Assembly: GCA_964490005.1 (NCBI GenBank) | Contig: CAZBBB010000004.1 | Location: 888 to 64,887, forward strand | From: an uncultured Phycisphaerales bacterium | Lineage (GTDB): Bacteria; Planctomycetota; B15-G4 | Length of the DNA stretch: 64,000 nt | Direction of reading: 5' to 3' | Shown here: positions 37,797 through 52,296 of the stretch, piece by piece | How positions within the stretch are numbered: position 1 is the stretch's first letter | How the letters are laid out: each line of letters starts with the position of its first letter | Translations under genes and position numbers: made by a program | Notes under the pieces: generated by a model | What the model was told of the DNA's origin: nothing | What the model saw: only the letters and a program-made list of their open reading frames with translations | Databases searched by the model: none

Positions 37797-38903
37797 TCAG
37801 GACGTGATCGGCATGACGACGTAGATCGAGTCGCCGCTTCCGCGGAACACGCCCGCCGAGGCGCGGTTCTTGAACGCGAAGTCGACCTGGTCCTCCGACA
37901 CCGTCTTGAGGTAGTCGCCGAGGAACTCGGGATTGAAGCGGATCTTGACCTCCTCGCCGTCGTACTCGACGCCGATCTCGCTGCGGCACTCGCCCAGACC
38001 GTCCTGCCGCGAACAGACCGCGAGCCGACCGGCACTGAATTGCAGTTCGACGGCGCGCGCTTCCTCGCCCGCCGTCACCGCCGCGCGCGAGATCGCCTCG
38101 ACGAATGCCGACCTGCCGATCGCGGCGCGGCAGGGCGTGTCGCTCTCCTTGGGCAGCACGGCGCGATAGTCGGGGAACTCGCCCTCCACGAGCAGGACGA
38201 TCACTTCCGTCTCGGCCAGACCGAAACCGATCTGGTTGTCGCGGACGTCGATCGTCAACTCGCCCGAGGCGTCGCTTGCGGCGCGGCGCAATTGGTCGAG
38301 GCCGCGCACCGGAACGATGGACGAGCAGGTCTCCGTCAGTCCCGTGCTGCAGCGCATCGAGGCGCGGGCCAGCCGCCGACCGTCGGTGGAGACGATCACG
38401 ATCTCTTCCGGGCCCAGTTCGAGCAGCACGCCGTGGAACGCGTAGCGCCCCATGTCGCGCGCGGCGGCGAAGGATGCGCGGTCGCACAGGTCGAGGAAGG
38501 CCGCGAGGGGCACGCGCACCGAAGCCTTCCCGCCGGCATCGAGCCCGGGAATCGCGGGAAACAAGTCCGCATCCTCCCCGTGCAGCTTGAAGGTGGTCGA
38601 CTCGCCCGAGATCTCGTGCAGGTTGCCCGACTCGCGGATGCTGAGTTCGGCGCTCGGCAGTGCGCGCACGGCGGACAGCAGCGTGGCGGCCGGCAGGGCG
38701 ACCCGCCCCGAGCCCGAGAGGCCTTCGACGTTGAGCCTGGTGCGGCAGGAGACCTCGCCATCGGTGGCGAGCAGGCGCACGCCGCCGTCATCGACCTCGA
38801 GCAGGACGTCCTGGAAGATCGGTCGGGGGCTTCGATTGGGTGCGAAGGAGGCTGCCAATTGCAGGCGCTGGAGGAAGGCTTCGCGGGGAGTATTCAGTTG
38901 CAT
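37797..38903 (-). CDS. dnaN: DNA polymerase III beta sliding clamp
   Basis: 368 aa with a three-domain clamp pattern (LLEVDDGGVRLLATDGEVS...; NPEFLGDYLK). Confidence 0.9.
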   Translation of the reverse strand: MQLNTPREAFLQRLQLAASFAPNRSPRPIFQDVLLEVDDGGVRLLATDGEVSCRTRLNVEGLSGSGRVALPAATLLSAVRALPSAELSIRESGNLHEISGESTTFKLHGEDADLFPAIPGLDAGGKASVRVPLAAFLDLCDRASFAAARDMGRYAFHGVLLELGPEEIVIVSTDGRRLARASMRCSTGLTETCSSIVPVRGLDQLRRAASDASGELTIDVRDNQIGFGLAETEVIVLLVEGEFPDYRAVLPKESDTPCRAAIGRSAFVEAISRAAVTAGEEARAVELQFSAGRLAVCSRQDGLGECRSEIGVEYDGEEVKIRFNPEFLGDYLKTVSEDQVDFAFKNRASAGVFRGSGDSIYVVMPITS

Positions 38904-39243
38904 GGAGGCGTCCTGCGGAACAGAGCAATCTTAATGAAATTCAGGTCTTCATCAGAAGAGCGAACGGATTGCGGATGGGCGGAGGAATGCATCACGCAAA
39001 GCGTTGCGGTGGAGGGGTTTATGGTATCGCAAAGACTGTTGATGAAGCTCGCGGAGAAGCGTGCGGAACGGTGCATGGCGACCGGTCGCTCGAGGGGAGC
39101 TGCCAAGCCGTCGCGCGGGTGCTGTGGAGGCTGCCCCGCCGGAGACCCTGGCCCTCCCGGGGATCTCCACAAGCGCGGCCGGGAATTCCGTCGAACCGCT
39201 TGGGGGCGACCCCGGCGCGCGACCCCACGCGTGCCGTTCGCAT
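38904..39243. promoter_or_regulatory. dnaA-dnaN intergenic region, candidate oriC / dnaN promoter
   Basis: 340-nt non-coding gap, locally AT-richer (38915-39060). DnaA-box-like 9-mers ATCTCCACA (about 39163) and TGTGGAGGC (about 39123). Confidence 0.3.
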
Positions 39244-40617
39244 TCATCGCTGGATGCGCGACTCGAGGTCATGAACGAGCTGCGAAAAGGGGCGATCGGC
39301 GTCGATGCGCTGCTTGACGCGATCGATCGCGTAGAGCACGGTCGAGTGGTCGCGCCCGCCGAAGTGCCCGCCGATCTCCTCGAGGGACAGCGCGGTCAGC
39401 CGGCGCGCGAGGAACATCGCGGTCTGGCGCGGCAACGTGACGGACTGCGTCCGGCGGCGCCCCTGCAGGTCGGCCACGCGCACGTCGAAGTGCTTGCAGA
39501 CGGCCTCCAGGATGCGCTCGATGCCGGTCAGCGGGCGCAGCGAGCCCCCGGGCGGACCGCCGAGCGCTTCGTGCGCCAGGTTCGCGTCGATCTCCCGATG
39601 GATGAGCTGGCTGTAGCCGATCACCTTGTTGATCGCCCCCTCGAGCTCGCGGATGTTCGTGTCGACGCGTTCGGCCAGCACGCCGAGGACGTCCTCGGGC
39701 ACGGCGACGCGGCGATCCTTCGCCTTGCGACGCAGGATGGCGACGCGCGTTTCGTAGCCCGGCGCGCCGATTTCGGCCTCCATGCCCCACTTGAAGCGGC
39801 TGACGAGCCGCTCCTTGAGCGAGGGGATGTCCTCGGGAGGGCTGTCGCTCGAGAGGACGATCTGGCGGCCGGAGTTGTAGAGCGCGTTGAAGGTGTGAAA
39901 GAACTCCTCCTGCGTCCGCTCCTTGTTCGCGAGCAGGTGGATGTCGTCGACGAGCAGGATGTCGACGTTGCGGTAGCGGTAGCGGAAGCGGTCGAGGTCG
40001 CGCTGCTCGATCGCGCCGATGAACTGGTTGATGAACGTCTCGGCCGACAGATACAGGATGTTCACCGCGTTGCCCGAGCGCATGGCCTGATGGCAGATGG
40101 CCTGCAGCAGGTGGGTCTTGCCGAGGCCGACGCGTCCGTGGAGGAAGAGCGGGTTGTACGAGGCGGCCGGGGCGTCGGCGACGGCGCGCGCGGCGGCGTG
40201 CGCGAGACGGTTGTTCGGGCCGACGACGAATTCGTCGAAGACGTATTTCTCGTTGAGCACGACGTCGGAGTGGTTGGCGAAGAAGTCGCGGTTCGTGTTC
40301 GCGGGCGCCGGGCCGGGAGCCGGCGCGGCCGTCGGCGGCGCCGGCCCGGCCGTGTCGGCGACGGAGCAGCGGAGCGGGGCATCGACGCCGAGCACGTCGC
40401 GCACGGCGGCCTTCAGCACGTCGCCGTAGTAGGCCGTGATCCAGTCGCGGATGAAGGGGTTGGCCACCGTCACGTGCACGCCCGCCTCGTCGGCGGAGAT
40501 CAGCGCGAGCGACGAGAACCACAGGTCGAACTGCTGCTTGCTGACGAGCCGGCGGATCGCCTCGACCAGGGCCGGCTGGCGCGGGGAGGGTTCGACGGCG
40601 GTCACTTCCTGCTGCAC
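39244..40617 (-). CDS. dnaA: Chromosomal replication initiator protein
   Basis: 457 aa. AAA+ motifs (GRVGLGKTHLL; ILLVDDIHLL) and the C-terminal DNA-binding domain (TLPRQTAMFLARRLT). Confidence 0.95.
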   Translation of the reverse strand: MQQEVTAVEPSPRQPALVEAIRRLVSKQQFDLWFSSLALISADEAGVHVTVANPFIRDWITAYYGDVLKAAVRDVLGVDAPLRCSVADTAGPAPPTAAPAPGPAPANTNRDFFANHSDVVLNEKYVFDEFVVGPNNRLAHAAARAVADAPAASYNPLFLHGRVGLGKTHLLQAICHQAMRSGNAVNILYLSAETFINQFIGAIEQRDLDRFRYRYRNVDILLVDDIHLLANKERTQEEFFHTFNALYNSGRQIVLSSDSPPEDIPSLKERLVSRFKWGMEAEIGAPGYETRVAILRRKAKDRRVAVPEDVLGVLAERVDTNIRELEGAINKVIGYSQLIHREIDANLAHEALGGPPGGSLRPLTGIERILEAVCKHFDVRVADLQGRRRTQSVTLPRQTAMFLARRLTALSLEEIGGHFGGRDHSTVLYAIDRVKQRIDADRPFSQLVHDLESRIQR

Positions 40618-40907
40618 GGCGATGCTCCTGCAAACGCGTTGGGCCTCGGGCGCAACGCACGGCCAGCGACGGAACGGAACTCGCCCCGACGCGCACTCTC
40701 CCGGTTGATCGCGCCCGGCTGTTGCCCGGTGCCGCTTCGCTCACAACGACTCGCCGAGTCCGCCACAGCCGCGTTCCCGCCGCGAGCCCGCGAAGCACGC
40801 ACGCCATCCGATCGCGAGCGTGACACTATGAGCGTTTTCACGTGCCTGTCAACGACGGCACCGCGTGCGCGCGTCGGCGCGACGCGGGACGAAGTGTTCG
40901 GATTCGA

Positions 40908-42035
40908 TCAGCGCGCGCGGACGGCGACGTCGCGCAGCGCGGTGGCGAGGCGCTCGGCGAACGCGGCGATGTCGGCGTCGGTGTTGCTCGGGCCGACGCT
41001 GATGCGCAGCGCGCCCTCGGCGCGCTCTGCGGGCCCACCGAGCGCGGCGATCACGGCCGAAGGTCGTTGCGAGCCCGACATGCACGCCGAACCGTGCGAC
41101 GCGCTCACGCCCAGCAGGTCGAGGCGCTGCACGAGCACGCTGCCACGGCGCCCGGGAAACGAGACGTTGAGCGTGTTCGAAAGGACGCGATCGACGGGAG
41201 AGTTCACCACCAGATGGGGCTCGACGTCGGTCATGGCCTCGAGCAGCCGAGCGGTCCAACCCGACCAGCGCGGTTGCGCGGCGGGGAGTTCCCTCAGCGC
41301 CGTCTCGGCGGCGGCGGCGAAGGCGTACGCCAGGGCGGCGGCCTCGGTTCCGGGCCGCAGCCCGCCCTCCTGGCCGCCCGCGGATCCGCCGCGCGCGGGC
41401 GACGCGAGCGAGCGACGCACGATGAGCGCGCCGATGCCGACGGGTCCACCCAGCTTGTGGGCCGAGAGGGTCATCAAGTCGGCGCCCGACGCGCGGAAGG
41501 ACAGCGGCTCCTTGCCGAACGCCTGGCTCGCATCGACGTGGAACAGGGCGTCCGCGCGCGCGGCGGCGGCGGCGAGCGAGGGCAGGTCCTGAAGCGTGCC
41601 GAGCTCGTGGTTGGCGGCCGCGACGCTCACCAAGGCAGCGCGCGTGGAGCTTGGCGCGGCGATCGAAGCGGGATCGACGCGTCCCCATGAATCGATCGCA
41701 AGAGCGAGGGGGCGACCGGTGCGCAGAACCGCCGCGAGGACCGAGGGGTGCTCGATGGGTGCGCAGGCGGCCGCGCCTCCGGGCGGAGTGAACGCGAGGG
41801 CGATCGCGTTGCTCTCGGTTCCGCCGGACGTGAAGACCAGTTCGTCGCGCTCGCAGTCGATGCAGCGCGCCAGGCGCTCGCGGGCCTCCTCGAGCCAGCG
41901 ACGCGCGCGTCGGCCGTCGGCGTGCGCGCTCGAGGGGTTGCCTGCGAGGCCCTCCTCGAAGCACTGCCACAGGCTCGACCGCGCCTCGGGGCGCAGCGGG
42001 CAGGTCGCGTTGTGGTCGAGATACAGGCGCTTCAT
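40908..42035 (-). CDS. Cysteine desulfurase (class V aminotransferase, NifS/IscS-like)
   Basis: 375 aa. FTSGGTESN, PLP-lysine SAHKLGGPVG and active-site SGSACMS. Confidence 0.8.
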   Translation of the reverse strand: MKRLYLDHNATCPLRPEARSSLWQCFEEGLAGNPSSAHADGRRARRWLEEARERLARCIDCERDELVFTSGGTESNAIALAFTPPGGAAACAPIEHPSVLAAVLRTGRPLALAIDSWGRVDPASIAAPSSTRAALVSVAAANHELGTLQDLPSLAAAAARADALFHVDASQAFGKEPLSFRASGADLMTLSAHKLGGPVGIGALIVRRSLASPARGGSAGGQEGGLRPGTEAAALAYAFAAAAETALRELPAAQPRWSGWTARLLEAMTDVEPHLVVNSPVDRVLSNTLNVSFPGRRGSVLVQRLDLLGVSASHGSACMSGSQRPSAVIAALGGPAERAEGALRISVGPSNTDADIAAFAERLATALRDVAVRAR

Positions 42036-43168
42036 GCGCCGGAACCGAGCAGCTCTTCGTAGATCGACTCGTGGCGCGCGACCGCCGCCTGCAGCGAAAA
42101 GACCTCTCGGGCGCGCTGCGCGCTGGCGGCGCCGAGTTGCCGGCGCAACGGGACGTCGTCGACGAGTCGCCCGACGGCCTCGGCCATGCCGGCCGTGTCC
42201 CCCACCGCCCGCAGATAGCCGGTCACGCCCTCGACCACCACCTCGGGCAGCCCGCCGACGCGCGAGGCGACGACGGGAACCGCGCAGGACATGGCCTCGA
42301 GGGCGGCCAGGCCGAACGACTCGGACTCGCTGGGAAACAGCGCCACGTCGGCGACCGCCGTGATGTGCTCGGCGTCGGGGATCTCGCCGAGCATGCGCAC
42401 GCGTCCGGCCAGGCCGCGCCGGCAGGCCTGGTCGCGAACGTGCTGCAGGTCGGGCCCGTCGCCGACGAGCATCAGGACGACGCGGCGCTCGGCGCCGAGC
42501 CGCTCGAGCACGTCGACCGTGTCGATGGCGCGCTTCAGGGGGCGGAAGTTGCTCGTGTGCAGCAACAGCGTCTCGTCGTCGGCGGCGAGTTCCCGCCGCG
42601 CGCGATCATCCTCGCGCGGCCGGAACCTGCGGGGGTCGACGAAGTTGGGCACGACATGGATCGGCCCGTCGTAGGCGAAGACTTCTCGCGTCTGCGCCTC
42701 CAGCCACGACGAGACGGAGATGACCGCGTCGCTCTTCTGCAGGCCGAAGCGGATGACCTCGCGGTAGCTCGGGTCGCGGCCGAGGATCGTGATGTCGGTG
42801 CCGTGGAGCGTGGTGACGATGCGGGTGCGCGAGGCCGGGAGCATCTCCCGGGCCAGCCAGGCGGACACGGCGTGCGGCACCGCGTAGTGCACGTGCAGGA
42901 CGTCGAGCGGCGTCGTCGCCATCACTTCGCGCAGCGTGGACGAGAGCGCCAGGTCGTAGGGCGGGTAGCGGAACAGCGGGTAGGACGAGACGCTCACGCC
43001 GTGGAACGTCACGCCGTGACGCAGCGCCGACAGTCGCGCGGGCCGCGAATAGCTGAAGAGATGGACGTCGTGCCCGCGGTCCGCAAGTGCCAGGCCGAGT
43101 TCGGTGGCCATCACGCCGCTGCCGCCGTAGGTCGGATAGCAGACGATGCCGATGCGTCGCCGCTTCAC
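42032..43168 (-). CDS. bshA: GT4 glycosyltransferase, BshA-like (N-acetyl-alpha-D-glucosaminyl L-malate synthase)
   Basis: GTG start (VKRRRIGIVCYPTYGGSGV...), 378 aa. EX7E-type motif (ESESFGLAALEAMSCAVPVVAS). 4-nt overlaps on both sides. Confidence 0.65.
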   Translation of the reverse strand: MKRRRIGIVCYPTYGGSGVMATELGLALADRGHDVHLFSYSRPARLSALRHGVTFHGVSVSSYPLFRYPPYDLALSSTLREVMATTPLDVLHVHYAVPHAVSAWLAREMLPASRTRIVTTLHGTDITILGRDPSYREVIRFGLQKSDAVISVSSWLEAQTREVFAYDGPIHVVPNFVDPRRFRPREDDRARRELAADDETLLLHTSNFRPLKRAIDTVDVLERLGAERRVVLMLVGDGPDLQHVRDQACRRGLAGRVRMLGEIPDAEHITAVADVALFPSESESFGLAALEAMSCAVPVVASRVGGLPEVVVEGVTGYLRAVGDTAGMAEAVGRLVDDVPLRRQLGAASAQRAREVFSLQAAVARHESIYEELLGSGA

Positions 43169-43902
43169 GGTGCGTGCCCGGTCTGTCCGTGGCCGCGCCC
43201 GCGGACGGCCGCCACCGGATCGTCGATCGCGAGCGGGCCCTCGACGATGTAGGGCTCTCCGTAGGTGGCGCCGATCATCGCGCCGCAGGTGCGATTGCCG
43301 GCGGCGATGGCCTCGAGGAAGTCCGGCGCGGAAATCGTCGTTCGCGGCTCGGTCGACGACGGATCGTGCAACTGGCTCGCGTGGGCGCGCACGGCCTCGA
43401 GCTTGCGTTCGAACACGTGGCTGATGTCGACGATCAGGGTCGGCTGGATCGGCTCGCGGGACGGATAGAACAGCACCCGACCGGGGCGCCACGGGTCGCC
43501 GGACGGACCGACGCGCGCGCACCCCGCCAGAAAGCGCGCTTCCTTCACGAGTTGACCGGTGCGCGCATGGTCCGGGTGGTCGTCGCTGATCCAGGGAGCG
43601 ACGACGAGCCGGGGGCGGTGGCGCCGGATCGCGTCGATCACGAGGTCGCGCGAGCTTCGATCCGATTCGATCGCACCGTCCGGAAGCCCGAGGCATTCGC
43701 GGAAGGCGAGTCCGAGGAGTTGGGCGCCGCGCGCCGCTTCCCCGGCGCGCCGATCGCTGGAGCCGCGCGTGCCCGATTCGCCGGCCGACATGTCGATGCC
43801 CCCCACCGTGCGTCCGCGCTCGCGCAGCGCGAGCACGAGACCGCCCGCGCAGATCTCGATGTCGTCGGGGTGCGGGCCGAAGACGAGGACATCAACCATC
43901 GC
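43165..43902 (-). CDS. bshB: LmbE/PIG-L family deacetylase, BshB-like
   Basis: Internal Met MVDVLVFGPHPDDIEICAGG (PIG-L HPDDE motif). 245 aa. Confidence 0.7.
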   Translation of the reverse strand, partial: AMVDVLVFGPHPDDIEICAGGLVLALRERGRTVGGIDMSAGESGTRGSSDRRAGEAARGAQLLGLAFRECLGLPDGAIESDRSSRDLVIDAIRRHRPRLVVAPWISDDHPDHARTGQLVKEARFLAGCARVGPSGDPWRPGRVLFYPSREPIQPTLIVDISHVFERKLEAVRAHASQLHDPSSTEPRTTISAPDFLEAIAAGNRTCGAMIGATYGEPYIVEGPLAIDDPVAAVRGRGHGQTGHAP

Positions 43903-45355
43903 GGCTCTCCGGGTCGGTGGTGTGGAGCACGTGGCGTGGCGGATCCAGCGGGCGCGCCAGGTCGACGAGTCGCCGCCCCCATGATGCAGGCCCTCCGTGC
44001 TCGAGCGCATCCGGAAGCCACGCGAGGACGGTGTCTTGGGGGCGGCCGCGCGGGCTGAGCGTCGCGGTCAGTAGCGAGCGCGGGCGGGTGTGCCAGGCGC
44101 GCTGTTCGGCCAGCCTGCGCATCGCGGACTCCGTCGACCGCCTCCAGCGCTCCGCGCGCGCCGCGATGCGCGCAGGTCCGTCGTCGAACGTGCGGGCGAA
44201 GTCGCGCAGGGCTTCACGCACGGCGTGCTCGGCAGGACCCGACGTGGACCGGGACGCGCCGAGGTCGAGCCCTTCCAGCCCGCCAGGGAGGCTGCCGAGG
44301 AGCGCCGGAGACACGAAGCTCGCTTCGAGGCGCGGCACCAGGACGGGGGCGATCAGTCCGAACTCCTGGTGCAGCAAACGTGCCTCACCCAGATAGCGCA
44401 GTTCGCTCGGCCCGCAGACTTGAGCGACCACCGGCAGCGACGCGGCCTGGACGAGGGGCCTGAGCGCGGCGTGGGGCGAGAAGTCTTCCGGCGATCGATC
44501 GTGGCGGCGGGCGGCCTCCCGATCCTCCGCAGCCACTCGCCGGCGTCGCCCGCCCCGCGACTCCATCACGAGCGGTCGCGGATCGCCGGCATCGAAGGAA
44601 GGCTGGAGACGGGCGGTCCGGGCGAGGTGCTGACCGCGCTCCAGGCTCGCGCGCAGTTGGTCCGGGCGGGTCAGGGCGCGGCGGATAATCTCATCGCCCA
44701 GCGGGCGCAGCGCATGCGCCTCGACCACGCGAAGCCCAAGAGGACCGAACGCGGCAAGCAGAGCGGCGCCATGGACTCTGGAGAGCTCGCAGAGCGCTGA
44801 ACTGTGAACGGATGTCGACTTTAAAACATCATTTAATTGATCACAACATGATTTCAAAGCACTTGTTAGAACCGAATCGTGATTCGTGGCGTACGTGCTG
44901 CGCCACGAAGCGTCGGAGCCGGGCAGGATGCGTGCCCTGAATCTCCGAATGCGGCCATCCAAATCATCGACAAGATCAATGTGATCCACCTCTGAAGAGT
45001 CGTGATCTTCTGTTGCGAGAAGGAACACCGGGACAACCGGACGAGACCAGGCGGACGAGAGATCGCGGGCGAGGGCGACCGCCGTGGCCGCCTTGTGGGC
45101 GATCAGGGCGGCGCCCGCTGCGAAGCAGGGCTGCTGTCCCGCGAGGACGACGAGTGCCCCCGAGGGAGCGGCTTCCCCGCGGAGAACGGCAAAGCCGCCG
45201 TTCCGTCCGGGATCGAGGGCCTGCGCGACGCGCTCGAAGCTTGCGAGCCCGGGCGCATGCCCCATCAGGGCCTGCAGCGACGGATCGCCCCCCCACCAAG
45301 CCTCCGTCCAGGACGCGTGCACCCTCGGCCTGGGCAGCCGACGCTCAGTGCTCAA
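43892..45355 (-). CDS. bshC: Bacillithiol biosynthesis cysteine-adding enzyme BshC-like
   Basis: 487 aa. LAGQQPCF...IAHKAATAVALA...PVVPVFLLATEDHDSSEVDH matches the recalled BshC N-terminal signature (GGQQ..G..HK...PVIPVFW.A.EDHD). Operonic with bshB-bshA. Confidence 0.55.
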   Translation of the reverse strand: MSTERRLPRPRVHASWTEAWWGGDPSLQALMGHAPGLASFERVAQALDPGRNGGFAVLRGEAAPSGALVVLAGQQPCFAAGAALIAHKAATAVALARDLSSAWSRPVVPVFLLATEDHDSSEVDHIDLVDDLDGRIRRFRARILPGSDASWRSTYATNHDSVLTSALKSCCDQLNDVLKSTSVHSSALCELSRVHGAALLAAFGPLGLRVVEAHALRPLGDEIIRRALTRPDQLRASLERGQHLARTARLQPSFDAGDPRPLVMESRGGRRRRVAAEDREAARRHDRSPEDFSPHAALRPLVQAASLPVVAQVCGPSELRYLGEARLLHQEFGLIAPVLVPRLEASFVSPALLGSLPGGLEGLDLGASRSTSGPAEHAVREALRDFARTFDDGPARIAARAERWRRSTESAMRRLAEQRAWHTRPRSLLTATLSPRGRPQDTVLAWLPDALEHGGPASWGRRLVDLARPLDPPRHVLHTTDPESRDG

Positions 45356-46251
45356 CGCGTGGCCTGGTGCGCAGCCTCGCGAAGCTGGTCGCGCAGCTTC
45401 TTCGCGGCGTCCCGAATGGGAGATTGCCAGTCGGCGCAGGCGGGATCGCCGAAGGCGTACAGAATCCCCCGCGACGAGTTCACGATCGCACCGAGGCCCG
45501 CCGAGTCGAAGGCGGCGGCGACATCGCGCGCCGTTGCGCCCTGGGCCCCGACTCCGGGGACGAGGAACCAGGCTTCAGGAAGCAGGCTTCGAAGCCGCGC
45601 CAGCTCGGCGGGCATGGTTGCGCCGACGACCGCGCCGACGCCGCAGTAGCCTCTCGAGGTCTCGAGCTGCGTCCCCCATTCGCGAACGAGCTGGGCGATG
45701 TGTTCATGAAGTGCGCGGCCATCGACGCGCAGGTCCTGCAACTCGCGGGCGGACGGATTTGACGTCCGGACGAGGATGAACAGGCCGGCGCCGGAACTGC
45801 GCGCCTCTCGCAGGAACGGAACGACGCTGTCCGACCCGAGGAGCGGATTGACCGTGACGGCGTCGGCGGCATGCGCGCCGCGCAGGTGGCCGGCGGCGTA
45901 GGCCTCGGCGGTCGAGCCGATGTCCCCGCGCTTGATGTCGCCGATGACGAGCAGGCCGGCGCGCTTCGCGGCGACGATGGCGGCCTCGTACGCCTCGATT
46001 CCCGGAGGCCCCCAACGCTCGTAATAGGCGCTCTGGGGTTTGACCGCGACCGCGTAGGGGCGGACGAGGTCGATGACGGCCGCGTCGAAGCGTCGAATGG
46101 CGTCTGCGGCGCGCGAGCGCTCATCCCCGCCCTCCGCGCGCTCGAGGATCGCCGCCGGGAACAGGGAGGGTTGCGGGTCGAGGCCGACGACAAGTGCCGA
46201 GTCCTTGCTCAGGACGGCATCCGCGAGGCGCTCGGCGAACGGCGAGGGCAT
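45352..46251 (-). CDS. pyrF: Orotidine 5'-phosphate decarboxylase (type 2)
   Basis: 299 aa from an internal Met (MPSPFAERLADAVLSKDSALVVGLDP) of ORF 45352..46581. DIKRGDIGST motif. Confidence 0.8.
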   Translation of the reverse strand: MPSPFAERLADAVLSKDSALVVGLDPQPSLFPAAILERAEGGDERSRAADAIRRFDAAVIDLVRPYAVAVKPQSAYYERWGPPGIEAYEAAIVAAKRAGLLVIGDIKRGDIGSTAEAYAAGHLRGAHAADAVTVNPLLGSDSVVPFLREARSSGAGLFILVRTSNPSARELQDLRVDGRALHEHIAQLVREWGTQLETSRGYCGVGAVVGATMPAELARLRSLLPEAWFLVPGVGAQGATARDVAAAFDSAGLGAIVNSSRGILYAFGDPACADWQSPIRDAAKKLRDQLREAAHQATR

Positions 46252-46832
46252 CAAGACTCCAGGAATGCCGCCAGGATCTGCCCACCGCATGGCGTCAGGA
46301 ACGACTCGGGATGGAACTGAACGCCGTAGTGGGGGCGCTCGGCGTGCCGAAGGGCCATGATATCGCCGTGCGGACTGCGAGCGGAGATGATCCACTCCCG
46401 GGGAAGCCCGACCTCCTCGACCAGCAATGAGTGGTACAGACCGGCATCGAAACGCGGAAGCGCTCGATCGAATGGAGGGCCGCCGTCGTGCGTGATCGAG
46501 ACGGCCCGCCCGTGCGTTGGTCTGGGGGAGCGGACGATCCGAGCCCCGGACGCGAACGCGAGCGCTTGGTGGCCGAGGCACACTCCGAGCAATGGGGTGT
46601 CCGGCCAGATGTCGCTGGCGACCAGCGAAGCTCCGGAGCGTCCGGGATGTCCTGGCCCGGGCGAGAGCACGACATGCGTGTACTCGCGGCGCTTCGAGTC
46701 CCCGACATCGACACGATCGTTGCGAACCACGGCAAGCGAGGCCCCTGGGCGGCAGAGGGCGCCAATGGCCTGATATAAATTATATGTAAACGAATCGTAA
46801 TTATCTATTATTAGTATATTCATATCAGACAT
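46251..46832 (-). CDS. pabA: Glutamine amidotransferase component of anthranilate/aminodeoxychorismate synthase
   Basis: MSDMNILIIDNYDSFTYNLYQ, catalytic GVCLGHQAL, HPES. The first ~25 codons are strikingly AT-rich. Confidence 0.85.
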   Translation of the reverse strand: MSDMNILIIDNYDSFTYNLYQAIGALCRPGASLAVVRNDRVDVGDSKRREYTHVVLSPGPGHPGRSGASLVASDIWPDTPLLGVCLGHQALAFASGARIVRSPRPTHGRAVSITHDGGPPFDRALPRFDAGLYHSLLVEEVGLPREWIISARSPHGDIMALRHAERPHYGVQFHPESFLTPCGGQILAAFLES

Positions 46833-46901
46833 CGCAGCGCGCGTCGACTTCAAAGGGCGGTCACGGCGTTGAGGCGGATAACGTCAATGTTAGTGGTAGA
46901 T

Positions 46902-48086
46902 TCAATATTCTATAAGTGAAGTATCGCTAACAGAGGCGCTCAGGAGCTCTCGGACGATGCTGTCCGCTCGCGGCAGCTCCTGCGGGGGGAGCGAGATGCC
47001 GTCGGAATCGTTCCGCACGAGCCCGATCGAGCAGAGCCGCGGGAGGGCGTCGCCAAGTACTGCCTTCCATGAGGGGCCGAAGCGTCGTTCCAAGCGTGCC
47101 CGCGGGATCCCGTCCCGCGTGCGCAGCCCCGTGGCCAGCGTCTCGAGCAGACGCTGGACCGGGGTCACTCGTTCGCAGGCGGCTCTCGCGGAGCGCGAAC
47201 CCTGGCAGGCGGCGCCGTAAGCCGCCAGCGTCCGCTGGTTGGTCCAGCGCCACGGATGGACGGAACTCGCCGCGCTGGGTCCGAGACCCACGTAGGAGTC
47301 GTTGCGCCAGTAGACCTGATTGTGTCGCGAGCGGTGCCCGGCGCGGCTGAAGTTCGAGACCTCGTAGCGCTGCAGTCCGCCGCGTTCGAGGAGTTCGGAC
47401 CAGGTGGCATCGAACGCGTCGCGTCGCGTGCTCGGCGCGACGACGATGCGGCCTTGATGCTGCAGGCGATGGAGCGGGGTGTCTTCTTCGATCGTCAGCC
47501 CGTAGACCGACACATGCGGCGGGCAGAACGCGAGCAACTGATTCACATCGGCGATGACGTCGGATCGCCGCTGCCCGGCCCATCCCACGAGCAGGTCCGC
47601 CGACCACGTGTGGGGCCAATGAGCGGCGACGAGGTCAAGCGCGGCGAGCACGTCGTCGGTCGAGTCGTGGCGGCCGAGGCGCGCCAGGACGTCGTGTCGA
47701 AACGTCTGTGTCCCGACGGAAAGCCGCGTGATGCCGAGTGCGTTCCACGCGCGCAACGCGGCCAGCGAGATGTCGCCGGGGTTCACCTCGAGCGTGACCT
47801 CGGCGCGCGCGGGCATTGACGTCGCTTCGCAAACGACGCCGAGAAGGCGTTCAAGCACATCGGGGGCGAGGCGCGACGGAGTGCCACCGCCGACGTACAC
47901 GGTCTCGAGCGCGTGTCCGAGGGGCGCCCGCCGCGCTTCGCGCGCGAGCGCATCGACGAAGTGCTCGTGCAGCGATGGGTCGTCGGGGAGAGTCGCGAAC
48001 GCGCAGTACGTGCAGCGGTCCCGACAGAAGGGAACGTGCACGTAGACACTGGACGGTGGGCCGTCCGGACCACGATCGAGCAGCAC
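46902..48086 (-). CDS. hemW: Radical SAM heme chaperone HemW (HemN-like)
   Basis: 394 aa. CRDRCTYCAF radical-SAM motif and HemN_C-like C-terminus. Confidence 0.85.
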   Translation of the reverse strand: MLLDRGPDGPPSSVYVHVPFCRDRCTYCAFATLPDDPSLHEHFVDALAREARRAPLGHALETVYVGGGTPSRLAPDVLERLLGVVCEATSMPARAEVTLEVNPGDISLAALRAWNALGITRLSVGTQTFRHDVLARLGRHDSTDDVLAALDLVAAHWPHTWSADLLVGWAGQRRSDVIADVNQLLAFCPPHVSVYGLTIEEDTPLHRLQHQGRIVVAPSTRRDAFDATWSELLERGGLQRYEVSNFSRAGHRSRHNQVYWRNDSYVGLGPSAASSVHPWRWTNQRTLAAYGAACQGSRSARAACERVTPVQRLLETLATGLRTRDGIPRARLERRFGPSWKAVLGDALPRLCSIGLVRNDSDGISLPPQELPRADSIVRELLSASVSDTSLIEY

Positions 48087-48103
48087 GGCCGAGGCGCCCT
48101 CGG

Positions 48104-48895
48104 TTAGACGGGTTCGCCCTCGGTCAGGGCAGCCAGCAGGCGGGCAAGCGCCTCGTTCTGGATTTGACGCACGCGTTCGCGGGTCAGACCCAACTCCTGG
48201 CCGATCTCCTTGAGGGTCATCGGCTCATCGTAGCCGAGACCGAAGCGCATCCGCAGAATCCGGACCTGCCTCTCATCCAGAGAGTCGAGGAGCAGCAACA
48301 TCCGCCGCTGCTCCTGTTGCTCAAGCATCGTCCTGCCCGGGTCGGGACTGTTCGGGTCGACGATGACCTCCGTGAGGTCGCCGTTCTCCTCGTCCTGCGC
48401 GAAGGACTGGGTATAGCGCGACGCGGTTCGCATGGCGGCCCGTACGGCGACGACGGCGTCGTCCTTCAGCTTCATGTGTCGGCCGACCTCCCCCGGCGAG
48501 GGCTCGCGGCCGAGCTCGAGCACGAGACGCTCCGTCGTCTGTTGCCAGCGCGACATGAGCTCGATCATGTAGGAAGGAATGCGCACGGTCTTCACCGTGT
48601 TCGTCAGCGCCCGGCGAATCGACTGCTTGATCCACCAGGTCGCGTAGGTCGAGAACCTGCAGTTCGCGTCGGGGTCGAACTTCTCGACGGCGCGCATGAG
48701 GCCGACGTTGCCTTCCTCGATGAGGTCGAGCAGCGCCATGCCGCGGTTCATGTAGCGCTTCGCGATGCTGACGACAAGCCGGAGGTTGGCGGCGGCAAGG
48801 TCGTTGCGCGACTGGCGACAGCCGAGCCGCACGCCGCGCGCGAGTTCCTTCTCCTGGTCAGCCGTCAGCAGCTTGACGCGGTTGATCTCCCGCAA
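48104..48895 (-). CDS. Group-2 sigma-70 family sigma factor (RpoS/RpoD-like without region 1.1)
   Basis: 263 aa. Region 1.2 [11 protein letters not shown]; region 2 [41 protein letters not shown]; region 3 [11 protein letters not shown]; region 4 [23 protein letters not shown]. Confidence 0.8.
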
Positions 48896-49047
48896 GTAAA
48901 TCTCGATCGACTGGTCGCCGGGAATCGGAGTCGCTCCGTGGAGAGGACACAGCGGGGCCCTCGTCGACTGCGTGCTGCGGCGGGCTTGAGGCGAAACCGG
49001 CCTCCGACCGACGAGAGTGCTATGCTGACGGAATCCGGGTCGGGCTC

Positions 49048-50343
49048 ATGACGCAGCAGGCCAAGTCACGCGACATCATCGTGCGGGAGGATGAATTCGG
49101 CCGCCTGCTCGCGGAGGCCGGCCTGAGCTGCGGCGCTTGGGCGGCGACGCTGCTGCGTGACCGTCGGCTGCTGGCCGATGAAGACGTGGTCGCCGCGTTC
49201 GTGCATCGGGCGCATGAGCTCGAGGCGTTCCTCGACGACTTCGGTGCACGCGAGAATCGAACGTTCGTGATGCTCGGCGAACTCGCGGCATCCCTGCACG
49301 GGCTCGCGACCGTGAAGACCAATGCCCTGCACCTGACCGCGCGGCTGCCGCGCTACCATGTGCTCATCGACAGCGGCCCGCTGGCTGCCGCGCTCGAGCA
49401 GGCGCACGTGATTCTGGACGACAGCCTGACCGCCCTGCTCGAAGCCTTCGCCAACGAGAGCCGCCGTTGGCTGCGAGACGACCTCGAGATCGCGCTGCCG
49501 ACGGGCGGACTGTCATCGCAGCGGCAACTCCTTCCGAGAAACCTCGACGAAGGCGAGACGGTCGACGAGCGCCAGCACATCGCGGAGATCGGTGCCCGGT
49601 TTCTGGCCATTCTTGCGACAAGCCGGAGCCTGGAACTCGGCCACAAGCGACCGATCAGGGAACTGCGGGACTTCGTGGCCGAGCACGCCACGGAGGCTCG
49701 CTGCCGCTGGTACGAGTCCTCCGTGCACAGCATTCAGTCCATGTACGACACCTACGTGCTGAACACCGCGGTGGAGCGCGACCACCCCTGGTTGAAGTCG
49801 ATGCGCGGACACGCGTCGGTTGCATTGCACCTGCTCGAGATGGCGACGGGGCTGGTGCACTTCTACGAGCGGCACGAGAACGACATCCGACATGAGCGGG
49901 CACGCCAAGCCATCGCGAAACTCGTGGCAAAGGACGAAGTCCTCGACGTCGCTGTTAATATAAGCCTAAGGCAGGCATATATTTACGTTGAGTCTGCGGC
50001 GGCAACGGCCAGTCAGATCTTGCGCACGTTCGTGAGGCATGGCGTCGCCAACCTGCGGCTTCTGCCGGGCATCACGCTGCACGCTCGGCCGCTCGCGCTC
50101 GTCGCCCAGGTTGCGAGGCATTACGGCACGCCGCTCGAGATCGACTTCGACGGCGACTCATGTGCCGCGGGGTCGCTCATGAGCCTGATCCTGCTCGGGG
50201 GCAAGCACCCCCGGCCCGTCGAGATCACGGCGCGAGGCGATGCCAGGGCGCTCCGAGACCTTGAAATTCTCTTCGCGGCGGGCCTTGGCGAGGGCGGCCG
50301 GGCATTGCCCCCGGAGCTCGACTACCTGCGCGCCAGGAATTAA
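49048..50343 (+). CDS. Protein with unknown 340-aa N-terminal domain fused to C-terminal HPr-family phosphocarrier domain
   Basis: 431 aa. The C-terminus LRLLPGITLHARPLALVAQVARHYGTPLEIDFDGDSCAAGSLMSLILLGGKHPRPVEITARGDARALRDLEILF matches HPr (His in GLHARPA; Ser region; GxxxxAxG). Confidence 0.6.
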   Translation: MTQQAKSRDIIVREDEFGRLLAEAGLSCGAWAATLLRDRRLLADEDVVAAFVHRAHELEAFLDDFGARENRTFVMLGELAASLHGLATVKTNALHLTARLPRYHVLIDSGPLAAALEQAHVILDDSLTALLEAFANESRRWLRDDLEIALPTGGLSSQRQLLPRNLDEGETVDERQHIAEIGARFLAILATSRSLELGHKRPIRELRDFVAEHATEARCRWYESSVHSIQSMYDTYVLNTAVERDHPWLKSMRGHASVALHLLEMATGLVHFYERHENDIRHERARQAIAKLVAKDEVLDVAVNISLRQAYIYVESAAATASQILRTFVRHGVANLRLLPGITLHARPLALVAQVARHYGTPLEIDFDGDSCAAGSLMSLILLGGKHPRPVEITARGDARALRDLEILFAAGLGEGGRALPPELDYLRARN

Positions 50344-50383
50344 CCGGCGGCCCCATTAGGGGTGGCGAGATGGTCGTCGGAGG

Positions 50384-50399
50384 TGTTTCACGTGAAACG
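50384..50399. promoter_or_regulatory. parS: parS centromere-like site
   Basis: TGTTTCACGTGAAACG matches the parS consensus TGTTTCACGTGAAACA at 15/16 positions. It lies about 85 nt upstream of parB. Confidence 0.8.
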
Positions 50400-50481
50400 C
50401 CTTGGTTGCCGCACCGACCGCGATTAGCCTTCCCACCCAAGCACTGAGCGTAAATCAACGGCGGCTGCGGAGGGTCAGATC

Positions 50482-51369
50482 ATGGGCGTGGATCGCAGGC
50501 TTGGGCGCGGGCTGGACAGCCTGATCTCCAGGACGACGGTAGAGGTAGGCGCCGGATCTCCTGCTGGGAGGCTCGTGGAGATCCCGGTGGCGATGGTCGA
50601 CCCGAACCCGGATCAGCCTCGCAAGTCGATGAATGAAGCCACTTTGGATGGATTGGCTGCCTCGATTAAGGCGCATGGGGTGCTGCAGCCGATCGTGGTC
50701 CAAGCCAGAGGGGCGCGTTATGAGCTCGTCGCCGGTGAGCGCCGACTTCGGGCTTCGAAGCGAGCGGGCCTCGAGACCGTTCCCGCGATCATCCTGGAGG
50801 TCGGGCCGGACAAGTCACTTGAGCTGGCGCTGCTCGAGAACATCCAGCGGGAGGACCTGGGAGCACTGGAAGAGGCATCGGCCTACGACGCCCTCATCGA
50901 ACGACTCGGCCTGACGCATCAGGCGCTTGCCGACCGCATCGGCAAGAGCAGGGCCTTCGTCACGAACAGTCTCAGGCTGCTGGAGCTGCCAGATGCCGTC
51001 AAGCGCCTGGTGCAGAGCGGAGCGCTTGCAGCCGGGCAGGCTCGTGCGCTGCTTGGCGCTCCGACTCCCGCCGATGTTGCCAGCCTCGCCATTGAGGCGG
51101 CGCGCAACCATTGGTCAACGCGCGAAGTTGAGAGCAGGGTGCGAGCCCTTTCGAAAGCCCGTGGGGGGCGCAAGGCGCGCCGCGTACACACCGAGATGAA
51201 GTCGCGATCAAGCGAAGAACTACGAACGTTATTCGGAACTAAGGTGACAGTAAGGGAGAACGATGGGCGCGGCGAGGTTGCGCTGGCGTTCTATTCGGCG
51301 CAGGATCGCGACAGACTGCTCCACTTGCTGCTCATCGGCGGCCGCAGTGCGGAGCGCCAGGGCGGCTAG
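50482..51369 (+). CDS. parB: Chromosome partitioning protein ParB/Spo0J
   Basis: 295 aa. GRGLDSLI N-terminus, LQPIVV, GERRLRAS box and HTH, plus a C-terminal dimerisation domain. Confidence 0.85.
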   Translation: MGVDRRLGRGLDSLISRTTVEVGAGSPAGRLVEIPVAMVDPNPDQPRKSMNEATLDGLAASIKAHGVLQPIVVQARGARYELVAGERRLRASKRAGLETVPAIILEVGPDKSLELALLENIQREDLGALEEASAYDALIERLGLTHQALADRIGKSRAFVTNSLRLLELPDAVKRLVQSGALAAGQARALLGAPTPADVASLAIEAARNHWSTREVESRVRALSKARGGRKARRVHTEMKSRSSEELRTLFGTKVTVRENDGRGEVALAFYSAQDRDRLLHLLLIGGRSAERQGG

Positions 51370-51382
51370 CAGATGACACGGG

Positions 51383-51418
51383 CTTCGCGTACCGCGAGCC
51401 GGCACGCGAGCCTTTTTT
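51383..51418 (+). terminator. Putative intrinsic terminator downstream of parB (convergent gene pair)
   Basis: GC-rich imperfect hairpin (GGCTTCGCG..CGCGAGCC) followed by TTTTTTT, then GGGGGGGG. Confidence 0.3.
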
Positions 51419-51458
51419 TGGGGGGGGCTTGGCCGCGGTTGCCCCCGGACGAAGCCAG

Positions 51459-51827
51459 TCAGGCCCCGGCGGTCGCGGGGGGGAAGCTGTCGACCGCCTG
51501 CAGGAGCTTTCGCATCCAGGGCGTTGTCGCATGCGACGGATTGCGAGCGACGGACTGCTCGGCGAGCTGGCGAGCGCGTTCGAGCGACCCGGCATCGCCC
51601 TTGTCGAACAACATCACGGCGAGTTGGTAATCCAACCACGGCATGGCTTCGGTCGACTCCGCTTTCACGCGGGCGGCTTCAAGGGACTCGACGGTCGCCC
51701 CGGAACTCGTGGCCGCGAAGAGCTCGTCCCAGCCCGCGCCCGTAGAGGCGGCCAACTGATAGCGAACGACCACCACGATCACCGCGGCGACCGAGACAGC
51801 GAGAAGAAGTCGAATGCCCTTGCTCAT
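51459..51827 (-). CDS. Small N-terminally anchored membrane protein, hypothetical
   Basis: 122 aa. TM LLLAVSVAAVIVVVV, then a helical soluble part. Confidence 0.4.
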   Translation of the reverse strand: MSKGIRLLLAVSVAAVIVVVVRYQLAASTGAGWDELFAATSSGATVESLEAARVKAESTEAMPWLDYQLAVMLFDKGDAGSLERARQLAEQSVARNPSHATTPWMRKLLQAVDSFPPATAGA

Positions 51828-52296
51828 GCTTTATTGGTCTTTTGAATGATGTATAGAATGATGTTAATGAAACGTTGATTCCATAATACATGCATCGCGA
51901 TCGACGCGTCCGAGGACTGCAATCAAGTCACCGCTCGTCGATCGACATCCGAAGCGCGTTTCGCTGCACGCGCTGCGCCTGCCGGCAAGGATGCGGCATG
52001 GAGGGCGCGTTCCCGGAAGCCAGCCGAGATCCACGGCCAACATCGGGGCACGCCGGACGCACGCATCGGAGACCGCAACACGCCGGCTCATTGTGATGCG
52101 CCTGAGTGCGCGGCACAAGCGAGGTCGTTCGGGACGATGTCCTTTCCATGACGGGGGCGTCGGACACCTTGTCGCGGTCGAGGGGCGTGAGCCAAGATCC
52201 GTTCCTGCACCTACGGCGGCCGCTCGGCCCTCCCCTGCTCGACCTGTCGTTCCCGAGCCCTCCGAGACCCGCGCCGCTTCCCCCAGGAGTCGTCCC

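Follow-up and report, generated by a model that had tools for sequence, protein, structure and literature searches.

A conserved cluster of A/T-ending codons at the start of pabA in a GC-rich Phycisphaerales bacterium, a possible region of accessible translation initiation

Known AT-binding silencers of the H-NS, Lsr2 and MvaT type typically target long horizontally acquired tracts, not 50-nt patches in core genes, and the bldA-TTA system of Streptomyces is a case of rare-tRNA gating. The choice of start-proximal codons for mRNA accessibility is an established phenomenon (PMC8410138; also PMC3072339 and PMC12725619), and reduced folding round the start codon was described by Kudla 2009 and Bentele 2013, according to the review PMC8410138. 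In near-overlapping gene pairs, the upstream gene's 3' end serves the initiation of the downstream gene (PMC8410138). Here, we compare these systems with AT-rich islands at the boundary between hemW and pabA in the window, meaning the whole 64-kb stretch of DNA that was analysed, which has a GC content of 71.4% (genome ~71%).

Layout of the hemW-pabA boundary

The lowest GC content of the whole window is found at the pabA start, with 15% over 40 nt, confirming the AT-rich composition near the hemW end and the pabA start that a preliminary description of this DNA had pointed out. The minus-strand codons quoted there are also right, both for pabA (aat ata cta ata ata gat aat tac gat tcg ttt aca tat aat tta tat) and for the hemW end (gtt agc gat act tca ctt ata gaa tat tga). 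The single AT-rich island of that description, however, resolves into two, the hemW tail and the pabA start, with a GC-rich spacer between them; 40-nt stretches with at most 40% GC lie within 46754-46845 and within 46868-46943. The islands were mapped by a scan of raw composition, the per-frame count of AT3 runs over the window ORFs being noisy through wrong-frame ORF parts. The features are as follows.

46902 to 48086, minus strand: hemW, radical SAM heme chaperone HemW, 394 aa, stop codon TGA at 46902-46904
46885 to 46935, minus strand: AT-rich island 1, the last ~11 hemW codons (V S D T S L I E Y stop) and ~17 nt past the stop
46833 to 46884, minus strand: GC-rich part of the hemW-pabA spacer (whole spacer 46833-46901, 69 nt)
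46251 to 46832, minus strand: pabA/trpG, encoding aminodeoxychorismate/anthranilate synthase component II, with 193 aa when counted from the ATG at 46832
46773 to 46829, minus strand: AT-rich island 2, a cluster of synonymous A/T-ending rare codons at pabA codons 2-20

Both gene names are borne out by matches above the curated cutoffs. The hemW product contains the Pfam domains Radical_SAM and HemN_C and reaches 219.6 bits with TIGR00539 (cutoff 205.4), and the pabA product reaches 150 bits with TIGR00566 (trpG_papA, cutoff 121) and is also matched in Pfam.

The spacer had been given as 48 nt, a value that holds only if the pabA ORF is extended to a TTG at 46853. From the hemW stop to the ATG at 46832 it measures 69 nt, and 78 nt if pabA starts at the ATG at 46823 (MNILIIDNY...), which agrees better with the orthologue N-termini in the alignment. 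In L001 the gene is called at 193 aa. The AT-rich run in pabA is also shorter than the 25 codons first proposed, as AT3 is raised over codons 2-20 of the ATG-started gene, with ATA GAT AAT TAC GAy TCn TTT as the conserved core. Island 1 is found at a distance of 55-105 nt on the 5' side of the pabA ATG, and the 20-70 nt that immediately precede the ATG are GC-rich in this species.

The AT-rich codon composition of the islands clearly exceeds chance. AT3 is 0.80-0.87 in the pabA island versus 0.24 in the pabA body, and 0.60 in the last 15 hemW codons versus 0.19 in the hemW body. The AT3 bases mildly favour A over T (29:16 versus 993:1142, p = 0.02).

The pabA gene is an internal member of a tightly packed GC-rich operon (sigma, hemW, pabA, pyrF, bshC, bshB, bshA, csd) with an RNA length of ~8 kb. 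In eight of nine relatives hemW and pabA abut or overlap (gap -20 to +14 nt), the remaining one, L004, having a gap of 103 nt, so the 69-nt GC-rich spacer is peculiar to this species. Its sequence is unique and seen only in L001, which rules out a repeat element, and a disrupted hemW coding sequence was rejected as well. Across taxa, the presence of the codon cluster is not associated with the hemW-pabA spacing. No tRNA genes were found in the 64-kb window, and an internal bshC start suggested by the L090 gene call is an artefact of the gene caller, the bshC ORF being intact.

Conservation of the codon cluster in strains and relatives

The pabA island is the same in a second strain, with no differences there and 28 in 5,957 nt overall. 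The comparison of pabA/hemW junctions in relatives, which had been proposed as a check, gives the same AT-rich cluster at the same codons in seven of ten syntenic taxa (the window, L002, L005, L006, L088, L090 and L091) and its absence in three. The relatives share 55-65% protein identity and their silent sites are near saturation, with identity at fourfold sites outside the clusters of 0.43-0.49 versus 0.37-0.41 expected (15 pairs, only L002/L006 being close). In the cluster-bearing taxa AT3 is 0.53-0.87 over codons 2-20 versus 0.07-0.26 in the gene bodies, and the pabA start forms the strongest cross-taxon AT3 peak, which none of 500 permutations equals in height. Since the same codons recur in seven of ten taxa at near-saturated silent sites, the cluster is, judging from this comparison, maintained by selection.

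The shared island in the second strain and at the same codons of near-saturated relatives also refutes the recombination scar that had been considered, and an assembly artefact is rejected together with it, as two independent assemblies and seven lineages carry the island. More broadly, the patch might have no function at all, being a neutral leftover, a patch received from a low-GC donor by horizontal transfer or gene conversion, a product of relaxed selection or an assembly chimera. It does look like the spelling that low-GC bacteria use for the same peptide, and the genes of the block that holds the islands have a GC3 of 0.70-0.89 versus 0.92-0.96 in the flanks. A neutral AT patch, however, would decay under the pressure that holds GC3 at ~90%, and the two assemblies, the seven lineages and the 0/500 permutations speak against it as well. 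These comparative data appear to have refuted the neutral reading already, and we regard it as extremely improbable.

The three cluster-less taxa are scattered on the tree, which does not fit a single origin followed by a single loss, although the neighbour-joining tree has long branches and is weak in this respect.

Position by position, AT3 is found in four to seven of the seven taxa through codon 11, in 7/7 at Phe15 and in 6/7 at Tyr17, and reaches background by codons 19-20. The bases just upstream of the pabA start, whether non-coding or hemW-coding, are AT-rich too in L002, L006 and L088. The AT3 enrichment of the hemW tail repeats across taxa (permutation p = 0.004), and the protein sequence of the HemW tail is not conserved across relatives. 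The Tyr12 codon is TAC in all seven taxa although its neighbours are AT3; with TAT-GAy at this position an AUG would arise out of frame, and in every taxon the first 63 nt of pabA are free of out-of-frame ATGs. A block of ~30 nt is nearly identical at the DNA level in seven lineages. This near-identity and the near-constant choice of ATA over ATT for Ile are more specific than AT-richness alone needs, which counts against the accessibility reading given below.

The run of ATA, CTA and TTA could act as a rare-codon gate or ramp, slowing early elongation or tying PabA to scarce tRNAs, namely tRNA-Ile2 (lysidine) and tRNA-Leu(UAA), comparable to bldA/TTA in Streptomyces or to a Tuller-type ramp. 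Among the ~16,650 codons counted there are only 7 ATA, 4 TTA and 6 CTA, and nearly all of them lie in pabA and its sister islands elsewhere in the window (5/7, 4/4 and 4/6, respectively), with 3/7, 1/4 and 1/6 in pabA codons 2-20. Ile codon 9 is ATA in 7/7 taxa and the neighbouring Ile codons are mostly ATA, even though ATT is commoner genome-wide, and position 8 is TTA in four taxa. The mid-gene sister islands use the same rare codons, so that a codon-level mechanism could cover both. Nevertheless, the AT enrichment reaches non-coding bases and the hemW 3' end, where pabA codons are irrelevant, while a bldA-like effect would stay within the regulated gene's own codons. Most of the AT3 codons, being GAT, AAT, TTT and TAT, share their tRNAs with C-ending partners, and the signal fades away from the start over the distance that accessibility would predict. 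For the N-terminal rare-codon effect itself, published work names RNA structure as the main cause (Bentele 2013 and Kudla 2009, via PMC8410138). A rare-codon gate is, in our assessment, unlikely, and the ramp likely rests on mRNA accessibility rather than on slow codons.

The same bases contain a promoter-like match:

46779 to 46807, minus strand (sense): sigma-70-like hexamer pair TAGATA-17-TATAAT, 10/12, with TATAAT at 46779-46784, written in the codons Ile-Asp-Asn ... Tyr-Asn

This pair could be an embedded sigma-70-type promoter that drives pyrF-bshCBA-csd, with the hemW-tail island as a promoter or UP-like element for pabA. Hexamers were scored against the TTGACA-17-TATAAT consensus, which may not be that of this phylum. 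The aligned site is TAGACA-17-TATAAT (11/12) in L088 and TAGATA-17-TATAAT (10/12) in L091 as in the window, and the region has four promoter-like matches versus 0.8 expected, all within the AT islands. The operon genes overlap or abut and the downstream genes have no intergenic space, so internal promoters would need to be coding; rare codons are a known mark of intragenic promoters, and a promoter for the next gene can arise from synonymous changes at a gene end (PMC8410138). On the other hand, the -10 lacks the final T or the A2 in four of the seven cluster-bearing taxa (TATAAC twice, TTTAAC and TTCAAT, shared among L002, L006, L090 and L005 and again read against a consensus that may not be the phylum's). 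ATA makes the -35 weaker (TAGAYA) than ATT would (TTGAYA), which is the opposite of promoter selection. AT3 conservation is highest beside the start codon and not at the -10, the transcript would begin inside pabA, ~520 nt before pyrF, and in no taxon does the hemW tail carry a consistent hexamer pair. An embedded promoter seems to us quite unlikely.

A preference for such codons at gene starts in general had been named as the finding that would overturn a special role of this island, and it is not what we observe. Over codons 2-16, AT3 is 0.80-0.87 in pabA and 0.07-0.33 in the other 11 genes of the block, and the genes of relatives have 0.15-0.29 in codons 1-10 versus 0.11-0.19 in their bodies, so a genome-wide 5' ramp is only weak in the data considered (12 window genes and the gene calls of five relatives). 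The identical PabA N-terminal peptide occurs in at least 80 other bacteria of many phyla. At least ~35 other GC-rich bacteria among the matches listed encode it with GC-ending codons, which means that the AT-rich start is not a general need of pabA, and a general property of pabA/trpG in GC-rich bacteria was rejected on the 80 loci among the matches listed. One member of the clade is among the matches listed.

mRNA folding and initiation at pabA

Folding of the mRNA, another suggestion of the preliminary description, is predicted to be among the weakest in the operon at the pabA start. In six of six taxa it is the weakest or near-weakest 60-nt window of the ~8-kb operon RNA, with a predicted dG of about -2 to -6 against a mean of -20, and the translation-initiation region falls at the 0-4% percentile in four of the six. 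From -25 to +75 the cluster-bearing taxa fold with -10 to -23 kcal/mol versus -24.5, -30.3 and -38.9 in the cluster-less ones. The hemW tail is likewise a local folding minimum (dG -1.9 to -7.7). Starts are structured in translationally coupled cistrons, bshC among them (71st-99th percentile), and open in genes that come first in an operon.

A Shine-Dalgarno (SD) sequence upstream of pabA is absent in five of the six taxa scanned. Three relatives manage without the cluster: L089 has AGGAG at 8-nt spacing and a structured start (28th percentile), and L004 and L007 show no evident SD either, which weighs against the accessibility reading.

An inverted repeat had also been reported in this segment. 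It exists, in a form other than the one quoted, since the quoted 8-mers match at 7/8:

46770 to 46780 and 46818 to 46828, minus strand: arms of the inverted repeat CTGATATAAAT / ATTCATATCAG, 10/11 complementary, with a 37-nt loop

The repeat is able to form an AU-rich hairpin round the pabA start region with a dG of -13.8 kcal/mol versus -7.8 +/- 2.5 in shuffles (z = -2.4), 3.7% of the shuffles equalling it, and thus exceeds chance only marginally. Being confined to this species, near chance and not conserved in relatives, it loses the importance given to it at first. That the start can enter this hairpin, and that the bases before the ATG are GC-rich in this species, is awkward for a simple open-start model. 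RNAalifold gives 0 consensus pairs for the seven cluster-bearing taxa, the hairpins varying by taxon, the hemW-pabA junction folds with z = -0.28, and no Rfam family matches at the gathering score or at E <= 5. A conserved riboswitch, thermometer or operator hairpin is rejected on the 0 consensus pairs and the missing Rfam match.

The best explanation, which we put forward with about even confidence, is that the pabA island is an initiation region predicted to be kept unfolded by synonymous codon choice. The translation-initiation ramp that was among the first suggestions is supported in substance by the gradient from the start codon, the folding minimum, the lack of an SD and the conservation. 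The signal is anchored on the start and decays within about -30 to +50 nt, predicted folding is weaker than elsewhere in the transcript (with the caveat of the species-specific hairpin of -13.8 kcal/mol), and the protein is unchanged while silent sites are selected. In mechanistic terms, pabA would be an independently initiated internal cistron, and because it has no SD, the ribosome would have to locate its start codon on accessible A/U-rich mRNA. As the N-terminal peptide (ILIIDNYDSFTYNL) belongs invariantly to the fold and is not free to change, selection would fall on the silent third positions, so that these have become almost all A/T over ~55 nt after the start. Selection would also act on the hemW 3' end, which directly abuts the pabA start in most relatives, and in this species the GC-rich spacer would have split the two AT-rich halves. 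We infer efficient SD-independent initiation as the benefit and the spacer as a secondary development.

Sister islands in the block and relation to known systems

Similar conserved AT3 islands are found inside bshC (two sites), the gene of an HPr-like protein and parB (C-terminal domain), as well as at intergenic sites. All eight islands with at most 40% GC and 20 of 29 with at most 50% GC sit in 36-52 kb, the gyrB-dnaN-dnaA...parB block with the sole parS at 50384-50399. Within genes, the islands of bshC, the HPr-like gene and parB are as strong and as conserved as that of pabA and are not explained by initiation, which is irrelevant there, making a shared cause other than initiation possible. 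A contig search with the HPr-like protein as query gave no matches.

The islands in pabA, bshC, the HPr-like gene, parB and between genes may be candidate sites of a nucleoid-associated or chromosome-organising protein near the origin and centromere, a binding site for such a protein or for a regulator having been among the first suggestions for the pabA region. Their confinement to the block that holds parS agrees with this, and so do the almost invariant ~30-nt pabA block at the DNA level and the positional conservation of the mid-gene islands across saturated lineages, for which there is no translational rationale. However, the islands share no common motif and contain neither parS (TGTTNCACGTGAAACA) nor a DnaA box (TTATCCACA), the sole DnaA-box-like match in the window being at 11134. 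From taxon to taxon, island strength changes in each gene independently of the others, which speaks against a single trans factor and contradicts one that is present or absent across taxa. In the pabA island the gradient is tied to the start codon, and the islands, 40-100 nt long, belong to a syntenic block of conserved core genes, unlike typical silencer targets. We consider such protein binding very unlikely, and give a similarly slim chance to pabA belonging to a clade-specific set of AT islands that would act at the DNA level, as phasing or nucleation sites or as coordinated embedded promoters.

The start of pabA offers a natural example of strong selection on silent sites, with ~20 consecutive rare A/T-ending codons where ~90% of third positions are G/C. 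It can serve as a test case for mRNA accessibility versus codon rarity and for SD-independent initiation at internal cistrons of uncultured GC-rich Planctomycetota. It also cautions annotators against taking every short AT island in a GC-rich gene for a scar, an insertion or a silencer target. The conserved AT islands in several origin-proximal genes are a less ordinary observation than the pabA start.

Among the described systems, sigma-70-type promoters that lie within genes and are marked by rare codons (Urtecho 2020, cited in PMC8410138) resemble the island in the 10-11/12 match in three taxa, whereas here four of the seven taxa have degraded hexamers and conservation peaks near the start codon. 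Conserved rare-codon clusters or ramps (Tuller 2010, PMC2840511; Chaney 2017, cited in PMC8410138) likewise place the rarest codons at homologous positions of orthologues, with one cluster here being N-terminal and others inside genes, but the AT-richness at this locus spans non-coding and upstream-gene bases, and most of the codons are read by the tRNAs of their commoner partners. The constraint on the 3' end of upstream genes (Eyre-Walker 1996, via PMC8410138) is matched by the AT3-enriched hemW tail, which in most relatives lies 0-20 nt from the pabA start and so doubles as its initiation region, while in this species it lies 55-105 nt upstream, beyond the classical ribosome-binding region.

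The start-proximal accessibility bias agrees in extent, beginning shortly upstream of the start and reaching about +55 nt, in its purely synonymous A/T-ending codons regardless of rarity, in the folding minimum and in being most pronounced where the genome is GC-rich and the gene lacks an SD. The pabA island differs in that its AT3 of 0.8 is far above the general ramp of the clade (0.07-0.33), ~30 nt are near-identical in seven saturated lineages, the cluster is missing from at least ~35 GC-rich bacteria with the same peptide among the matches listed, and the bases directly 5' of the ATG are GC-rich in this species. The pabA island is an extreme example of this known effect and not a new kind of element.

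AT-rich islands at the hemW-pabA junction

The window has an overall GC content of 71.4%, and the lowest value anywhere in its 64 kb, 15% over 40 nt, lies in an island at the start of pabA. The junction comprises the following features:

46902-48086, minus strand: hemW (TIGR00539; Radical_SAM and HemN_C)
46251-46832, minus strand: pabA/trpG, downstream of hemW (TIGR00566; GATase)
about 46885-46935, minus strand: AT-rich island of the hemW tail, covering the final ~11 codons and ~17 nt past the stop
46773-46829, minus strand: AT-rich island of the pabA start, codons 2-20
46770-46780 and 46818-46828: inverted repeat with arms of 11 nt each, 10/11 complementary

The preliminary description had proposed one AT-rich island here. 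The AT-richness is real and far beyond chance, and the codons quoted for both gene ends are correct, but there are two islands, split by a GC-rich stretch. Three candidate pabA starts are present (TTG 46853, ATG 46832, and ATG 46823), of which ATG 46823 (MNILIIDNY) fits best, because orthologues start one residue ahead of ILLIDNY. The spacer is 69 nt long if the start is ATG 46832 and 78 nt if it is ATG 46823; the 48 nt reported previously holds only for the TTG-extended open reading frame. The first base of the AT-rich run coincides exactly with the ATG at 46832. In the window species, the 20 to 70 nt directly 5' of the pabA ATG are GC-rich. The spacer is unique sequence, which rules out a repeat, and an origin as broken hemW coding sequence was also ruled out; we infer that it may be secondary, having divided a formerly continuous AT-rich junction.

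The inverted repeat was previously quoted as 8-mers, which pair at only 7/8. It could fold into an AU hairpin around the pabA start (predicted −13.8 kcal/mol, z = −2.4); however, an equally good repeat occurs in 3.7% of shuffles, it is not conserved among relatives, and it is incidental. Searches against Rfam gave no family match, neither for the window at the gathering score nor for the junction at an E value of ≤5.

Conservation of the pabA codon cluster

A codon choice general to gene starts, raised beforehand as the point against the island, was not found. Over codons 2-16, AT3 (the share of codons ending in A or T) is 0.80-0.87 in pabA versus 0.07-0.33 (median 0.13) in the other 11 genes of the surrounding block, and relatives show only a weak ramp (0.15-0.29 at codons 1-10 versus 0.11-0.19 in gene bodies), too weak in either case to be the cause. 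Among 80 PabA/TrpG loci from many phyla, about 35 GC-rich genes encode the same N-terminal peptide with ordinary GC-ending codons (AT3 0.00-0.38, mostly ≤0.19), ruling out a general pabA property; the island is specific to the window's clade.

The nearest PabA, 99% identical, is encoded on a 5,957-nt contig of a second strain (Logan SRR22250828), which carries the same islands; its 28 differences from the window all lie outside the pabA island. The next-closest relatives, all uncultured Planctomycetota, share only 54-64% PabA identity, and the gene order is identical in all nine of their loci retrieved. Fourfold-degenerate sites outside the clusters are near saturation (identity 0.43-0.49 versus 0.37-0.41 expected, 15 pairs), the only close pair being loci L002 and L006, so the lineages are effectively independent at silent sites. 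The AT3 clusters nevertheless fall in identical alignment columns across relatives. This recurrence, together with the unchanged island of the second strain, excludes an assembly artefact and the recombination scar suggested earlier.

Cross-taxon AT3 peaks after subtraction of amino-acid-specific AT3 frequencies (500 permutations)
Region; peak; permutation result
pabA N-terminus; 0.41 (highest of all); 0/500
bshC; 0.39; 0/500
parB; 0.39; 0/500
HPr-like gene; 0.32; 0/500
hemW tail; 0.29; p = 0.004

The same test gave no cluster in the sigma factor, bshA, or bshB genes. Comparison of orthologous hemW/pabA junctions, as proposed in the preliminary description, places the pabA cluster (codons 2-20 in A/T-ending codons) in 7 of 10 taxa, with an AT3 of 0.53-0.87 and the core ATA GAT AAT TAC GAy TCn TTT common to all seven; about 30 nt of the island are almost invariant in these lineages. 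The cluster is wholly missing in the other three (AT3 0.00), which do not group on a long-branched distance tree, suggesting an old feature with several losses. The L002 hemW gene (3779-4991) is called in two pieces and is a single 406-aa gene in the near-identical L003 locus (3771-4991). The L002 contig probably carries a frameshift or a sequencing error.

Islands elsewhere in the origin/parS block

The origin/centromere block carries gyrB, dnaN, dnaA, cysteine desulfurase, bshA/B/C, pyrF, pabA, hemW, and a sigma factor gene on one strand, and the genes for an HPr-domain protein and parB on the opposite strand. All eight window stretches of ≤40% GC lie within 38.9-52 kb, and the 36-52 kb region holds 11/11 of the AT-rich 40-nt stretches at ≤45% GC and 20/29 at ≤50%, whereas intergenic regions outside it never fall below 47%. 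GC3 (the share of codons ending in G or C) is also lower in block genes, at 0.70-0.89 versus 0.92-0.96 in the flanks, and these genes rank lowest for GC3 in every relative too. Candidate causes are a reduced GC-biased pressure close to the origin/centromere, low expression, or a DNA-level role. Besides hemW-pabA, island sites comprise two intergenic ones and these mid-gene runs of A/T-ending rare codons:

44795-44888 and 44957-45000: bshC
49945-49997: HPr-like gene
51214-51254: parB, C-terminal domain

Relatives whose silent sites are saturated have such runs at matching alignment columns (0/500 permutations per gene), with gaA ... ggA acT of parB preserved in 5-6 of 6 taxa. They are not explicable by translation initiation; pausing during translation, promoters within the genes, or binding of a protein may each account for them. 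It is mildly interesting that bshC, parB, and the HPr-like gene hold similar conserved islands and that none of these islands lies outside the origin/parS-proximal block.

A near-perfect parS palindrome, TGTTTCACGTGAAACG (50384-50399, one mismatch to consensus), occupies the gap that separates the HPr-like gene from parB; the 64 kb contain no other parS-like site. The HPr-like gene (49048-50343, plus strand) encodes a protein of about 430 aa that ends in an HPr-like domain (PF00381; below the TIGR01003 cutoff) and matches no family elsewhere. Its orthologues lie directly upstream of parB in 9/9 relatives, the usual place of parA, but no adjacent parA is present. Identity between the protein and its L002 orthologue is ~62%, and long motifs are invariant, among them WYESxVHSIQSMYDTYVLNT and FYERHENDIRHE.

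The dnaA-dnaN intergenic island (38913-38971), just 5' of dnaN, is conserved (L004 18165-18231, L005 18570-18641, L006 18072-18130, and L007 17958-18026), with a common TTTCATTAAGATTG-like core and a short GAAGAC...GTCTTC-type inverted repeat ahead of it; candidate roles are termination of dnaA, a dnaN promoter/leader, or a piece of oriC. The whole window contains no DnaA-box cluster of the E. coli type. Cumulative GC skew over 34000-52000 is lowest near 35 kb and climbs until about 52 kb, even though the dnaA-side genes of this stretch lie on the minus strand.

ALTERNATIVES

The genome's rarest codons are gathered in the AT islands (TTA 4/4, ATA 5/7, and CTA 4/6, of about 16,650 codons), as expected if the ATA, TTA, CTA run at the pabA start gated translation, but non-coding and upstream-gene bases are AT-rich as well, and we regard such gating as unlikely.

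The A/T-ending codons of the universally conserved pabA/trpG peptide I-D-N-Y-D-S-F-T-Y-N spell a sigma-70 −35/17-nt/−10 arrangement (46779-46807, minus strand), and ATT GAC A... TAT AAT would give a perfect TTGACA-17-TATAAT. Because the peptide spacing matches −35/−10, low-GC genomes have a near-consensus promoter-like sequence there by default; the clade's invariant ATA in place of ATT weakens the −35. An embedded promoter is unlikely: the candidate TAGATA-17-TATAAT matches at 10/12 positions in the window and L091 and 11/12 in L088, but the −10 is degraded in 4 of 7 cluster-bearing taxa, ATA yields a weaker −35 than ATT would, and conservation is maximal close to the start codon, not at the −10.

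Binding of a protein to the islands would cover both their regional clustering and the mid-gene runs. The islands, however, have no motif in common and contain no parS or DnaA box, and their strengths differ independently from taxon to taxon; we rate this role as unlikely.

A possible translation-initiation role of the pabA island

In our judgement the chances are about even that the pabA island serves as the A/U-rich, weakly folded initiation region, maintained by selection, of an independently initiated internal cistron lacking a Shine-Dalgarno (SD) sequence. Among the causes offered in the preliminary description, translation initiation is the best supported. With the PabA N-terminal peptide invariant, only silent sites would be left for selection to act on. 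AT3 conservation decreases with distance from the start codon, from 4-7 of the 7 cluster taxa up to codon 11, through 7/7 at Phe15 and 6/7 at Tyr17, to background by codons 19-20. The short non-coding hemW-pabA gaps are AT-rich in L002, L006, and L088, and the hemW tail, enriched in AT3 across taxa, belongs to the pabA initiation region because hemW ends −20 to +14 nt from the pabA start in 8/9 relatives.

In the mRNA folding prediction, also proposed beforehand, the pabA start ranks lowest or almost lowest in folding strength among 60-nt windows along the ~8-kb operon RNA in 6/6 taxa (about −2 to −6 kcal/mol versus an operon mean of about −20). From −25 to +75, predicted folding is −10 to −23 kcal/mol with the cluster and −24.5, −30.3, and −38.9 in the three taxa without it; RNAalifold found no consensus base pairs across the seven cluster-bearing sequences. 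No SD sequence was found upstream of pabA in 5 of 6 taxa scanned, and strict SD motifs are rare in these loci (1-5 of 11-18 genes). L089, without the cluster, has AGGAG at 8-nt spacing and a structured pabA start. Starts are structured (71st-99th percentile) in coupled internal cistrons, bshC among them, and open in genes that come first in an operon; pabA resembles the latter. Tyr12 is TAC in all seven cluster taxa amid A/T-ending neighbours; TAT-GAy would yield an out-of-frame AUG, and out-of-frame ATG is absent from the first 63 nt of pabA in every taxon. A is also mildly preferred over T.

Against the initiation reading, the cluster-less L004 and L007 also lack an SD sequence, and ATA is almost always chosen over the commoner ATT. 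This choice and the ~30 near-invariant nt exceed the specificity needed for mere AT-richness, and the GC-rich upstream bases and AU hairpin of the window species do not fit neatly.

Codon choice close to the start is established as affecting mRNA accessibility, and in near-overlapping pairs the upstream gene is known to be constrained at its 3' end (PMC8410138; also PMC3072339 and PMC12725619). The features of the pabA junction agree with both, making the island an extreme, clade-specific case of a known phenomenon and modestly new.
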